Positions 47 through 4,705 are shown, numbered from the stretch's first letter. The stretch: 4,705 nt of DNA from a virus (IMGVR_UViG_2698536677_000018:1-4705), one strand, 5' to 3'. Made by a program: numbers and translations. Notes: generated by a model from the sequence alone, not told the origin.

Positions 47-73
47 TTGATTTTTTTGTTTGCTGTTTATTAA
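47..73 (+). promoter_or_regulatory. Candidate sigma70 promoter (-35 TTGATT 47-52, -10 TATTAA 68-73), possible late promoter analogous to lambda pR'
   Basis: Hexamers read directly from sequence. Spacer is only 15 nt and the -10 lacks the conserved final T, so the match is weak. Position just after an upstream stop codon and ~200 nt upstream of a strong terminator fits lambdoid late-leader layout. Confidence 0.2.
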
Positions 74-252
74 AAACACTTCTGCATGGTGAATCCCCCT
101 GTGCGGTGGGGCAATCAGCAAGAAGGAATATGGGGTAATCGCGGATTCAGGTGCTGATACTGAATTCACCGGGAGGCACCCGGCACCATGCTTTGCCACA
201 AAAGTGTTATTTCTGTTTTTCTCAAACTATCATCGTTATCCCTTTATTTTCG

Positions 253-2656: not shown

Positions 2657-2741
2657 AAAGTGAGCCAGTCAAATGGAAGGTATCGTTAAACTCACCGGTA
2701 GTGTCAGTGGGTCGTCTGAGACGCCTGCATGAGTTATCAGA

Positions 2742-2771
2742 GCCATCAGTAGTTAACTGGTGGCTTTTTTA
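2742..2771 (+). terminator. Rho-independent terminator between the esterase gene and the holin gene
   Basis: Stem GCCATCAG (2742-2749) pairs with CTGGTGGC (2757-2764) with one G-U pair, loop TAGTTAA, then TTTTTT at 2765-2770. Confidence 0.6.
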
Positions 2772-2805: not shown

Positions 2806-3021
2806 ATGTACCAGATGGAAAAAATCACAACGGGTGTGTCATACACCACGTCAGCGGTGGGGACGGGATACTGGTTACTGCAGCTGCTGGACAAAGTCTC
2901 TCCGTCCCAGTGGGTGGCGATAGGTGTGCTGGGGAGTCTGCTGTTTGGCCTGCTGACGTATCTGACTAACCTGTATTTCAAAATCAGAGAGGACCGGCGT
3001 AAGGCGGCGCGGGGAGAGTAA
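2806..3021 (+). CDS. S: Class II holin (S21-type pinholin), 71 aa, with dual-start motif M1-Y-Q-M4
   Basis: Translation [71 protein letters not shown] closely matches phage 21 S as recalled (...[14 protein letters not shown]...[22 protein letters not shown]). GGAGA SD upstream. The six-frame ORF starting at 2701 would run through the terminator hairpin, so the ATG at 2806 is preferred. Confidence 0.85.
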
Positions 3022-3025
3022 AGTG

Positions 3026-3370
3026 ATGAATAAAAAATACGAACTGGTTGTTAAAGGGATAAATAATTACCCGGATAAGATTACTGTTACTGTGGCACTG
3101 GAAATTGGTGGGTATCCGTCACTGTTGTTGCCATATGTGGCGATTAGTCTTGACCGTACTGAAGGTGCCACGCTGGAGTTTTACGAAGCTGAGGCGAAAA
3201 AGCAGGCGAAGCAGTTTTTCATGGATGTTGCTGCCGGGTTATGTGAAGGGGATGGTCCGTTGCCGGAAAAGCGGCCCATCATTTTAGAGGCGCAGGATGT
3301 GTTGATAACCTACAGAGGAAAACTACCGGGAATAATTACTGGTTCTCTGAAGACTCCACCGCTGGCCTGA
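3026..3370 (+). CDS. Conserved hypothetical lysis-cassette protein, 114 aa, soluble; possibly DUF1327/YdfR-like
   Basis: ORF with strong SD (GGGGAGAG 3011-3018) that starts 5 nt after the holin stop. Its position between holin and endolysin matches the slot of ydfR in the E. coli Qin prophage as recalled. No transmembrane segment or recognisable catalytic motif. The family assignment is from memory, not a search. Confidence 0.55.
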   Translation: MNKKYELVVKGINNYPDKITVTVALEIGGYPSLLLPYVAISLDRTEGATLEFYEAEAKKQAKQFFMDVAAGLCEGDGPLPEKRPIILEAQDVLITYRGKLPGIITGSLKTPPLA

Positions 3371-3420
3371 AGACTTAACATATCCAGGGATTTGAAATCG
3401 ATAAACCCTGATAAATATCC

Positions 3421-3957
3421 ATGAACGCAAAAATCAGATACGGCCTGTCGGCTGCCGTTCTGGCGCTGATTGGTGCAGGGGCGTCTGCGCCTGAAATCCT
3501 CGACCAGTTTCTTGACGAAAAAGAAGGTAACCACACCACGGCATACCGTGATGGTGCGGGGATCTGGACCATCTGCCGCGGTACCACCCGAGTGGATGGT
3601 AAACCTGTCGTCCCGGGCATGAAGTTGTCGAAGGAAAAATGCGACCAGGTTAACGCCATTGAACGTGATAAGGCGCTGGAGTGGGGGGAGCGCAATATTA
3701 AAGTACCGCTGACCGAACCCCAGAAGGCGGGTATCGCGTCATTTTGTCCTTATAACATTGGCCCCGGTAAGTGTTTCCCGTCTACGTTTTACAGACGGAT
3801 TAATGCAGGTGATCTAAAAGGTGCCTGCGAAGCGTTCGCTGGTGGATTAAGGACGGTGGCAGAGACTGCCGTATCCGCTCAAATAATTGCTACGGTCAGG
3901 TATCCCGGCGAGACCAGGAAAGTGCACTGGCGTGCTGGGGAATTGACAGGCAAGTAG
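3421..3957 (+). CDS. R: SAR endolysin (T4-lysozyme-family, phage 21 R-like), C-terminal ~40 codons apparently frameshifted
   Basis: N-terminal Gly/Ala-rich signal-anchor-release segment YGLSAAVLALIGAGASAP. Catalytic triad spacing E-x8-D-x5-T in KEGNHTTAYRDGAGIWT matches phage 21 R (LEGVSYIPYKDIVGVWT). After ...GDLKGACEA the called frame gives FAGGLRTVAE..., unlike the family, while the overlapping frame encodes RWWIKDGGR...SRRDQESALACWG, which resembles phage 21 R (RRWTYAGGK...TRREIEREVCLWG). Confidence 0.75.
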   Translation: MNAKIRYGLSAAVLALIGAGASAPEILDQFLDEKEGNHTTAYRDGAGIWTICRGTTRVDGKPVVPGMKLSKEKCDQVNAIERDKALEWGERNIKVPLTEPQKAGIASFCPYNIGPGKCFPSTFYRRINAGDLKGACEAFAGGLRTVAETAVSAQIIATVRYPGETRKVHWRAGELTGK

Positions 3958-4041
3958 AATATTTTGCTGAAAATGACGTTGGTCAACGCGGGTGGGTAAC
4001 ACGAAATCCTGCGAACTGGCAAAAGCTAAGTGAATAAAAGT

Positions 4042-4080
4042 AAAACCTCGTTTGTTGGCCGCAAACGGGGTTTTGTGTTT
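4042..4080. terminator. Strong bidirectional rho-independent terminator hairpin (13-bp stem, 7-nt loop, T-rich tracts on both sides)
   Basis: AAAACCTCGTTTG (4042-4054) pairs with CAAACGGGGTTTT (4062-4074) with one G-U pair, followed by TTTTGTGTTT. The A-run on the 5' side gives a U-tract on the reverse strand. Confidence 0.65.
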
Positions 4081-4143
4081 CTGACCTTGAGTAAGGCAAA
4101 GGAGAACATAGGAAAGTATAAACGAATTCTGTTGAGATTGACT

Positions 4144-4290
4144 ATGAAAGACGGCCTTGAACTGAAAGCGCCTGTAACTGATGACGTCAGCAGAGCGCTG
4201 GCTTTTGCTATTAAGTGGGTGGCGGTCGGTATTGCTGTGTCTCCGATGCTGTATGGGCTGGCAAAACTGGTCATTGCGTTGAAATCGTGA
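4144..4290 (+). CDS. Hypothetical small membrane protein (48 aa, one predicted TM segment)
   Basis: First ATG in the 4030-4290 open frame lying downstream of the terminator hairpin. C-terminal hydrophobic stretch WVAVGIAVSPMLYGLAKLVIAL. No convincing SD within 5-10 nt of the ATG, so support is weak. Confidence 0.25.
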   Translation: MKDGLELKAPVTDDVSRALAFAIKWVAVGIAVSPMLYGLAKLVIALKS

Positions 4291-4302: not shown

Positions 4303-4413
4303 ATGTCAGACAAGCTCATAACGCTGGCGAAGATCCTCTGTGTAATCGTCGGCATTTCATTTTCACTAATATGCTGGTTGCTATTTGCTTTTCCACTGCC
4401 TGGCGCGTCTTAA
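4303..4413 (+). CDS. Hypothetical small hydrophobic peptide (36 aa, single TM-like segment)
   Basis: ATG at 4303 preceded by GAGGA (4292-4296) at 6-nt spacing. Translation MSDKLITLAKILCVIVGISFSLICWLLFAFPLPGAS. Too short to appear in the supplied ORF track. Confidence 0.35.
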   Translation: MSDKLITLAKILCVIVGISFSLICWLLFAFPLPGAS

Positions 4414-4443: not shown

Positions 4444-4705
4444 ATGAACCGTGTTCTGTGTGTGGTGATTATTGTCCTGCTGGTAGCCTGTGGTGCGCTT
4501 GGTCTGGGGCTGAATCATTACCGCGATAACGCCATTACCTACAAAGCGCAACGCGATAAAAAAGCCAGTGAGCTAAAGCTGGCGAACGTGACAATTACTG
4601 ATATGCAGGTACGCCAGCGTGATGTCGCTGCACTTGATGCCAGATACTCGAGGGAATTAGCCGATGCGAGAGCTGAAAATGAAACTCTGCGTGCTGATGT
4701 TGCCG
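4444..4705 (+). CDS. Rz: Rz inner-membrane spanin (i-spanin), lambda-type, 5' partial (runs off the window end)
   Basis: Translation [87 protein letters not shown] is near-identical to lambda Rz as recalled (...[64 protein letters not shown]). N-terminal TM segment then coiled-coil region. GAGGGG SD upstream. Confidence 0.9.
4665..4705 (+). CDS. Rz1: Rz1 outer-membrane lipoprotein spanin (o-spanin), embedded in the +1 frame of Rz, 5' partial
   Basis: ATG at 4665 in a different frame from Rz encodes [13 protein letters not shown]..., matching the lambda Rz1 start MLKLKMMLCVMMLP as recalled. Only 13 codons lie in the window; the true start could instead be the Met at 4680. Confidence 0.6.

Follow-up and report, generated by a model that had tools for sequence, protein, structure and literature searches.

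YdfR of Escherichia coli K-12 (b1555, P76160), encoded by the Qin cryptic prophage in the order essQ–ydfR–rrrQ–rzpQ, belongs to the same protein family, PF07041 (DUF1327), as the protein considered here, which is encoded at positions 3026-3370 of a 4,705-nt stretch of viral DNA (IMGVR_UViG_2698536677_000018:1-4705), in what follows the window. In both cases the gene occupies the slot between an S21-type holin gene and a lysozyme gene and uses a start coupled to the end of S. The two proteins are 46% identical, without gaps, over residues 1-74 (BLASTP, E 2e-22), and nothing can be aligned beyond residue 74: from about this point K-12 YdfR, 103 aa long, ends in the unrelated tail EKLSEKVESYLQHQYSFKIENPANKHERPHHKYL, the stop of its gene overlapping with the start of R, whereas the window protein carries a middle module and its gene is followed by a 50-nt spacer.

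The sole experimental study bearing on function in this family concerns the K-12 allele. In the genomic two-hybrid screen of Gopel et al. (RNA Biol 2026), codons 1-72 of K-12 ydfR came up on three occasions (PMC13232886). Bacterial two-hybrid assays gave a signal with Rne 1-597, the catalytic half of RNase E, both for YdfR residues 1-72 and for a fusion of the whole protein; a short-linker fusion did not score with full-length Rne (PMC13232886). Upon purification of Strep-YdfR, FLAG-tagged Rne 1-598 was found in the eluate (PMC13232886). DNase-resistant nucleic acid co-purified with YdfR, a contaminant as the source of this RNA not having been ruled out by the authors, and IPTG-induced over-expression of ydfR affected only a small number of transcripts and left growth unimpaired (PMC13232886). 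The contact with RNase E is reported for the K-12 allele only, and with over-produced fusions (PMC13232886). Two large screens also mention the gene: the Keio ydfR mutant figures, unvalidated, in the raw lists of a CPRG envelope-permeability screen (PMC3879167 supplements), and ydfR is listed with a 3-fold higher streptomycin MIC, without follow-up, in a genome-wide antibiotic-survival screen (PMC12924614). In the literature search, the term 'DUF1327' was met in one paper, as an annotation label only. Gene and family are both catalogued, and therefore already known as objects.

Protein modulators of RNase E comprise the host proteins RraA and RraB, the adaptor RapZ, Dip of phage phiKZ and Srd of phage T4. 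K-12 YdfR compares with these as a small protein reported to contact RNase E, and the part contacted is, as for RapZ, the catalytic N-terminal half. Antiholins and other holin regulators, such as lambda S107, S21-71, T4 RI and P1 LydB, form a second group of known systems, the described examples being membrane-embedded or periplasmic partners of the holin, or else holin isoforms. The DUF1327 gene likewise adjoins a holin gene and is made at the same time, but its product has no membrane or signal segment, and relatives are also found outside lysis cassettes. Finally, morons are extra genes located at late-operon junctions, a concept due to Juhala/Hendrix that has been summarised for Stx phages (PMC8065619); bor and lom of lambda are named lambdoid examples of such junction genes. 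[quoted passage not shown] As it is co-oriented with the late operon and translationally coupled into it, one would expect its expression chiefly in lytic growth.

The locus and the encoded protein

The window is a lambdoid late region with, in order, an esterase gene, the holin gene S, the DUF1327 ORF, the lysozyme gene R, two small ORFs and the start of an Rz-like gene at 4444. The features on which the following relies are these:

365-2656: NanS-p-type sialate O-acetylesterase, with DUF1737, SASA and DUF6645 domains
2806-3021, + strand: S holin, S21-type class II (pinholin type), 71 aa; PF04971, 112.3 bits, and PHROG holin families
3013-3018, + strand: Shine-Dalgarno sequence GGAGAG, inside the last S codons; GGAG at 3013-3016, 9 nt before the ATG
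3026-3370, + strand: DUF1327/YdfR-family ORF, 114 aa; ATG at 3026, TGA at 3368-3370; PF07041; PHROGs 406, 2091 and 1085
3026-3250, + strand: conserved core, residues 1-75; predicted beta strands 5-14, 18-27 and 37-43 and long helix 50-74
3251-3361, + strand: middle module DGPLPEKRPIILEAQDVLITYRGKLPGIITGSLKTPP, residues 76-112; low-confidence structure, pLDDT 35-49
3356-3366, + strand: junction repeat CCACCGCTGGC, breakpoint relative to locus L015, where the distal copy reads CCACCACTGGC
3371-3420, + strand: 50-nt spacer between the DUF1327 ORF and R, with no recognisable Shine-Dalgarno sequence
3421-3957, + strand: R, phage lysozyme with an N-terminal hydrophobic, SAR-like segment; PF00959, matched over residues 33-140 only

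Some features of the window lie outside this set. The sRNA STnc100 is found at 55-227 (+), upstream of the esterase gene (Rfam RF02076, 100.8 bits against a gathering score of 47). A strong terminator-like hairpin with a T-run at 2739-2767 (+) lies within the late operon, about 40 nt 5′ of the S start, and presumably needs Q-mediated read-through. Between R and Rz, the small ORF 4030-4290 (phrog_1115) encodes a hydrophobic segment at its C-terminus; the RefSeq start of its homologue corresponds to an internal MGKYKR. A second terminator-like hairpin, AAAACC.CGTTTG...CAAACGGGGTTTT, is located at about 4044-4075 in the 5′ part of this ORF, just after R.

The DUF1327 ORF is intact over its 114 codons. 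Its ATG is separated by 4 nt (AGTG) from the TAA (3019-3021) of S, the gene that provides the coupled start; the original prediction of a 114-aa ORF beginning 5 nt after the S stop (3021 + 5 = 3026) behind a strong ribosome-binding site is therefore accurate, GGAG being present upstream. The proposal that a profile search would return DUF1327 proved equally correct: with a gathering cut-off of 25, PF07041 is matched at 149.6 bits and an E-value of 2.9e-44, and residues 1-112 cover profile positions 1-92 of 93. The three PHROGs matched by the ORF (406, 2091 and 1085) are all families of unknown function, and no NCBIfam model for the DUF1327/YdfR family was found. RefSeq holds an identical protein, WP_021569237.1, under the name 'YdfR family protein', and a 100% identical copy occurs in E. 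coli 97-3250, flanked by a class II holin and a lysozyme. In Stx1a, Stx2c and some Stx2a phages (H-19B, BP-4795, YYZ-2008, Stx2a_WGPS2, Stx2_EH2201), the hypothetical protein between S and R is 98% identical to the window protein over 114 residues. Relative to the Stx-phage consensus, the window allele carries K2N and D37Y, both at variable positions. Position and flanks of the gene in these phages are as in the window, but their R is intact whereas that of the window is frameshifted. The DUF1327 ORF is a genuine gene and not a chance reading frame, because the family is conserved down to ~30% identity, its predicted fold is confident (pLDDT 90) and the dN/dS of the core is ~0.26-0.30.

The prediction of a soluble protein devoid of transmembrane segments also stands. 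The highest 19-residue Kyte-Doolittle mean is 1.29, as compared with 1.83 in the S holin, from which we conclude that no membrane segment is present; in the predicted structure the hydrophobic stretch forms beta strands within a soluble domain. The core is predicted by AlphaFold2, using a diverse alignment, as a beta-beta-beta-alpha unit in which three strands pack on the helix (mean pLDDT 90, pTM 0.78), while residues 76-114 are modelled at pLDDT below 50. In the family alignment M1, Y53 and E54 are invariant. An acidic core (pI ~5) is followed by a basic tail (pI 8.4). In Escherichia the core exists as two alleles, MNKKYELVV... (the window type) and MTQ.YEL.V... (the K-12 type). Its dN/dS is 0.26 between mEp460 and K-12 and ~0.28-0.30 between the window type and mEp460, the latter for a pair in which dS is saturated.

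The family as a whole is modular, with a core of ~75 residues, the middle module and, in forms of 176-197 aa, a helical C-terminal extension. According to the alignments, the middle module (EKRPIILEAQ..ITY.GKLPG.ITGSLKTPP) is present in the window protein and absent from K-12 YdfR and from core-only homologues. Clear purifying selection was not seen in this module, in which very few substitutions are available. It was also considered as an independent family, but every match is a fragment or a deletion variant. Across the family the C-terminal parts are mosaic, and databases hold many truncated or frameshifted variants. Pfam returned no informative domain for the C-terminal extensions of the 176-, 183-, 195-, 206- and 287-aa forms, so that guilt by fusion offers no clue. 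Database entries joining the protein to a holin, ANT or Rz1 domain appear to be artefacts of frameshifting or assembly. The gene encodes a small, soluble, cytoplasmic protein whose core is conserved and whose tail is variable and probably flexible.

Comparison with known folds and families yielded no relatives. For the full-length model the best matches had E-values of 0.13 in the PDB (Foldseek) and 0.0035 in BFVD, and for the confident core model the best PDB match had an E-value of 0.26 (Foldseek), nothing falling below 1e-3 in any of these searches; a profile search of PDB sequences gave no match at E≤1. Matches to UvrC, RNase-H-like and tyrosine-phosphatase folds are weak and reflect only the generic beta-beta-beta-alpha motif. 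RraA, RraB, RapZ and Dip were absent from the 50 matches listed by Foldseek for the DUF1327 models, and from the search of PDB sequences. PADLOC-DB 2.0 gave no match at E≤0.1 for the window protein, the 176- and 183-aa forms or K-12 YdfR. The DUF1327 protein thus lies outside every antiholin, RNase E-regulator and defence family tested.

Distribution, genomic position and allelic forms

The family has very few members: when 1.84 billion representative proteins were searched exhaustively with a profile, 87 were retrieved at E≤1e-3, the named sources being Escherichia, Shigella, Salmonella and Yersinia. Within E. coli it is common at the DNA level, since 3159 of 5426 complete genomes (58%) contain homologues, often more than one copy and at up to 8 places per genome. 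Among phage records, a DUF1327 homologue is found in 101, as against 436 with an S21-type holin homologue, 335 of which have no DUF1327 gene. One of the phages devoid of the gene is VT2-Sakai (933W type), in which R starts 4 nt after the S stop, that is, in the very slot taken by the DUF1327 ATG in the window. The end of S, including GGAG, is common to VT2-Sakai and the window; the same Shine-Dalgarno sequence therefore serves R in phages without DUF1327, and in the window R is displaced 400 nt downstream. The gene also stands out from its neighbours in composition, with a GC content of 46.7% and a GC3 of 47.0%, compared with 54.6% and 69.4% for S and 54.2% and 56.4% for R. A consensus scan of the + strand flanking 3026-3370 found no promoter-like site and no convincing terminator, weak internal hairpins only, which implies that the gene rides on the late transcript.

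Three arrangements of the R start were observed when the window (3371-3420) was compared with loci L014 (2716-2721) and L003 (6055-6060): coupling to S (VT2-Sakai), overlap of the ydfR stop with the R start in ATGA (K-12), and a 50-nt spacer without recognisable Shine-Dalgarno sequence (window type). The insert may thereby change the S:R ratio. In the DNA alignment, the 50-nt spacer is the same as the stretch found 5′ of R in the 183-aa form, and its last ~15 nt match the 3′-terminal codons of K-12 ydfR, in which the stop overlaps with the start of R.

When one genome per bacterial species was scanned with a narrower alignment that recovers Escherichia-type loci only, six loci came up, from E. 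coli, E. albertii, E. ruysiae and a Veillonella MAG contig. At all six the order is S, a 4-nt gap, the DUF1327 ATG and then R, with nucleotide-exact spacing. The Veillonella case (JAGZPX010000007.1, MAG: Veillonella parvula; L027) is an S–ydfR–R cassette 99% identical to K-12 YdfR, and is probably an E. coli contig mis-binned into the MAG. A Salmonella member of 195 aa lies between a holin of a different family (PF16080) and a lysozyme. The most distant members, by contrast, are core-only proteins of 72-99 aa that are ~30-35% identical, and all six of those located one by one (P0200, P0210, P0170, P0179, P0218 and P0172; P0210 from Yersinia rochesterensis) are encoded in lambda-like tail modules, not in lysis cassettes, at the M-like/L-like, L/K-like NlpC/P60 or I/J junctions:

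L004 4001-4486, L007 4001-4529, L008 4001-4506, L017/L019 3501-4321 and L021 511-966: core-only DUF1327 genes in tail modules

As a consequence, the consistent association with lysis cassettes that would be expected of antiholins does not hold for this family, whose Escherichia and Salmonella members sit between S and R and six distant ones in tail modules. The presence of relatives among tail genes makes a dedicated holin or endolysin regulator unlikely.

A further recurrent feature is a small convergent ORF (70-182 aa) directly 3′ of the DUF1327 gene and often overlapping it, which was found in 8 of 12 distinct contexts. These contexts include all tail-module cases, phage Evi, the 183-aa E. 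coli form and BL21; two of the six loci from the species scan have such a partner as well. In phage Evi the order is S, a core-only gene of 72 aa, a convergent ORF of 98 aa and then R. The partners, which are acidic, soluble proteins, are distributed over different PHROGs (6806, 2572 and 25324). No similarity among them and no Pfam match were detected, and PADLOC had no match for the eight convergent partner ORFs. Many copies, among them those of the window, K-12 and mEp460, have no convergent partner. In E. coli, the overlap is seen in lysis cassettes at the following loci:

L015 498-1257, L022 1678-2260 and L009 2501-3040: lysis-cassette loci with convergent overlap (phrog_2572, phrog_25324, WP_000370546.1)

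One of these loci relates directly to the window. Alignment of the DNA shows that the window allele equals the 183-aa allele of L015 minus ~480 bp, a segment that comprises the C-terminal extension and a convergent ORF of 86 aa. It is owing to these missing ~480 bp that the window has no convergent ORF. As the breakpoints fall at CCACCGCTGGC and CCACCACTGGC, the window ORF takes its final two codons and its stop from DNA that is spacer in the longer form.

The prophage copy represented by the window is decaying, with a frameshift in R, a 2-nt insertion and a duplication in the esterase gene, while the DUF1327 ORF is intact. In an alignment with two close relatives, R lacks 1 nt between 3834 and 3835; its last ~38 residues are thereby replaced, and divergence is elevated downstream of the deletion. 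Adding one base to R restores ...IRWWIKDGGRDCRIRSNNCYGQVSRRDQESALACWGIDR, the usual C-terminus, yet reading then runs past the usual stop. Judged from its sequence, R is probably a pseudogene in the window, and this prophage copy may therefore not lyse; the SAR endolysin that had been expected downstream is present as a lysozyme gene with a SAR-like segment, but in a broken state. Near 4369 (4364-4377), the window reads CACTAATATGCTGG where a relative has CACTA--ATGCTGG, and this 2-nt insertion alters the C-terminal half of a small hydrophobic ORF (4303-4413, phrog_4906) between R and Rz. Within the esterase ORF (365-2656), a tandem duplication with a 438-bp period keeps the reading frame, the copies at 526-825 and 964-1263 being 95% identical; the protein counts 763 aa, as against 616 aa in the close relative L001.

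Alternative explanations

The original prediction read the conserved position between holin and endolysin as the sign of a lysis regulator. The position is indeed recurrent (six of six Escherichia-type loci, and Salmonella), but the gene is optional, as shown by the 101 records with the gene against 436 with the holin type, and the functional reading is not supported. Under this reading the protein would be made in step with the holin and would act on it from the cytoplasmic side, for instance through the basic cytoplasmic tail at the C-terminus of S; pinholin triggering would be delayed or sharpened as a result, and with it the release of the SAR endolysin. The invariant coupled position right after S in Escherichia and the use of the same slot behind the PF16080 holin in Salmonella are what one would expect from such a protein, as is the pairing of an acidic core (pI ~5) with a basic holin tail. 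The nucleotide-exact S/R slot and the Salmonella case could accordingly reflect a lysis-related role. The presence of the Keio ydfR mutant in the raw envelope-permeability lists points in the same direction, but the entry is unvalidated, and a kan cassette between holin and endolysin would be an obvious source of polar artefacts; we consider that it is likely to represent a polar effect on rrrQ. About three quarters of the phage records with the same holin, VT2-Sakai included, do without the gene, and its product has no membrane segment. The GC3 of 47%, as against 69% for S and 56% for R, the tail-module location of all six distant homologues and the lack of a growth defect on over-expression of K-12 ydfR (PMC13232886) also weigh against control of lysis; a modest role in its timing is, in our view, unlikely. 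The position in a lysis cassette is not to be read here as a lysis function, given that tail modules harbour relatives of the gene and that it is missing from most phages with this holin.

Opposite-strand genes are unusual in lambdoid late operons. The convergent ORFs may therefore hint at an accessory module of two genes, in which DUF1327 would normally be paired with a variable convergent gene, perhaps cargo expressed in the lysogen (exclusion, defence or toxin-antitoxin-like) and silenced by antisense late transcription; the window would then be a relic that lost the partner through the 480-bp deletion. Indeed, a convergent ORF recurs in 8 of 12 contexts, in tail modules and lysis cassettes alike, and at two of six Escherichia loci; several partners fall into recurrent PHROGs (6806, 2572, 25324), and the window allele is precisely a paired allele minus partner and C-terminal extension. 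On the other hand, the partners share neither mutual similarity nor a match to defence models or Pfam, some of the small ORFs could be artefacts of gene calling, and the partnerless copies in the window, K-12 and mEp460 retain an intact core under purifying selection. This explanation, too, appears improbable.

A selfish or neutral insert whose protein has no significant function, acting only in cis by displacing R from the S-coupled start and so lowering endolysin translation relative to the holin, would be in line with the coupled R start of phages lacking the gene and the 50-nt spacer without recognisable Shine-Dalgarno sequence before R in the window, with the highly mosaic C-terminal parts and the many truncated or frameshifted database variants, with the middle module showing no clear constraint and with the decay of the prophage itself (R frameshift), but is very improbable in view of a core conserved to ~30% identity across genera, with a confident fold and a dN/dS of ~0.26-0.30, of homologous DNA at up to 8 places in each of 3159 among 5426 complete E. 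coli genomes, and of core-only copies that persist in quite different operon positions.

An accessory late gene and its possible contact with RNase E

The DUF1327 gene is an optional and horizontally mobile insert with an S-coupled start on the late transcript, and encodes a soluble protein of two parts in which the core is the selected, conserved unit. It is very probably a non-essential accessory gene and not a core component of lysis. The explanation that we tentatively favour, and to which we would give nearly even chances, is that of a moron-like accessory late gene whose core is aimed at a cytoplasmic host factor, possibly RNase E. Slotted into the lambdoid late operon, the gene shares with the lysis genes a transcript from the Q-dependent late promoter, and its translation begins at the S-end-coupled start, the site used by R in phages without DUF1327. 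The core would most likely serve as a binding module for a cytoplasmic host component; RNase E, contacted through its catalytic N-terminal half and perhaps with RNA involved, is the one partner to which experiments point. In this case host or phage RNA decay, rather than holin or endolysin activity, would be adjusted late in infection or in lysogens.

The RNase E part of this explanation is considerably more doubtful than the accessory nature of the gene. The view that no gene at this position had been functionally described is now out of date, residues 1-72 of K-12 YdfR having been found to bind the catalytic half of RNase E (PMC13232886). This interacting segment coincides with the conserved core and is 46% identical to the window protein, which might by homology bind RNase E as its K-12 counterpart does, with RNA decay as its biological role. 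Conversely, the core is acidic, which is atypical of RNA binders, and as neither sequence nor fold resembles any solved structure, nothing structural supports the link. All in all, RNase E is a somewhat unlikely candidate for the relevant target.

It is tempting to go one step further, into what we consider a distinctly improbable scenario, and to imagine DUF1327 as a phage-borne RNase E adaptor, kept in a fixed ratio with the holin by the S-coupled start, that would reprogramme RNA decay during the final minutes of infection; it might, for example, shield the very long late transcript, with the stx mRNA of Stx phages, or shut off transcripts of the host. The full form of the protein would work with, or guard, the variable convergent cargo gene. 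If this were true, more than half of E. coli genomes would contain a host-takeover factor of prophage origin belonging to a class so far overlooked.

The main value of the present analysis lies in the negative result on the lysis-regulator idea and in the pointer to the RNase E report. In many Stx1a and Stx2c phages the DUF1327 gene adjoins those for toxin and lysis. If the contact with RNase E is real and general, a phage factor would be acting on the central RNA-decay enzyme while toxin and lysis genes are being expressed, and this could affect Stx yield and burst.
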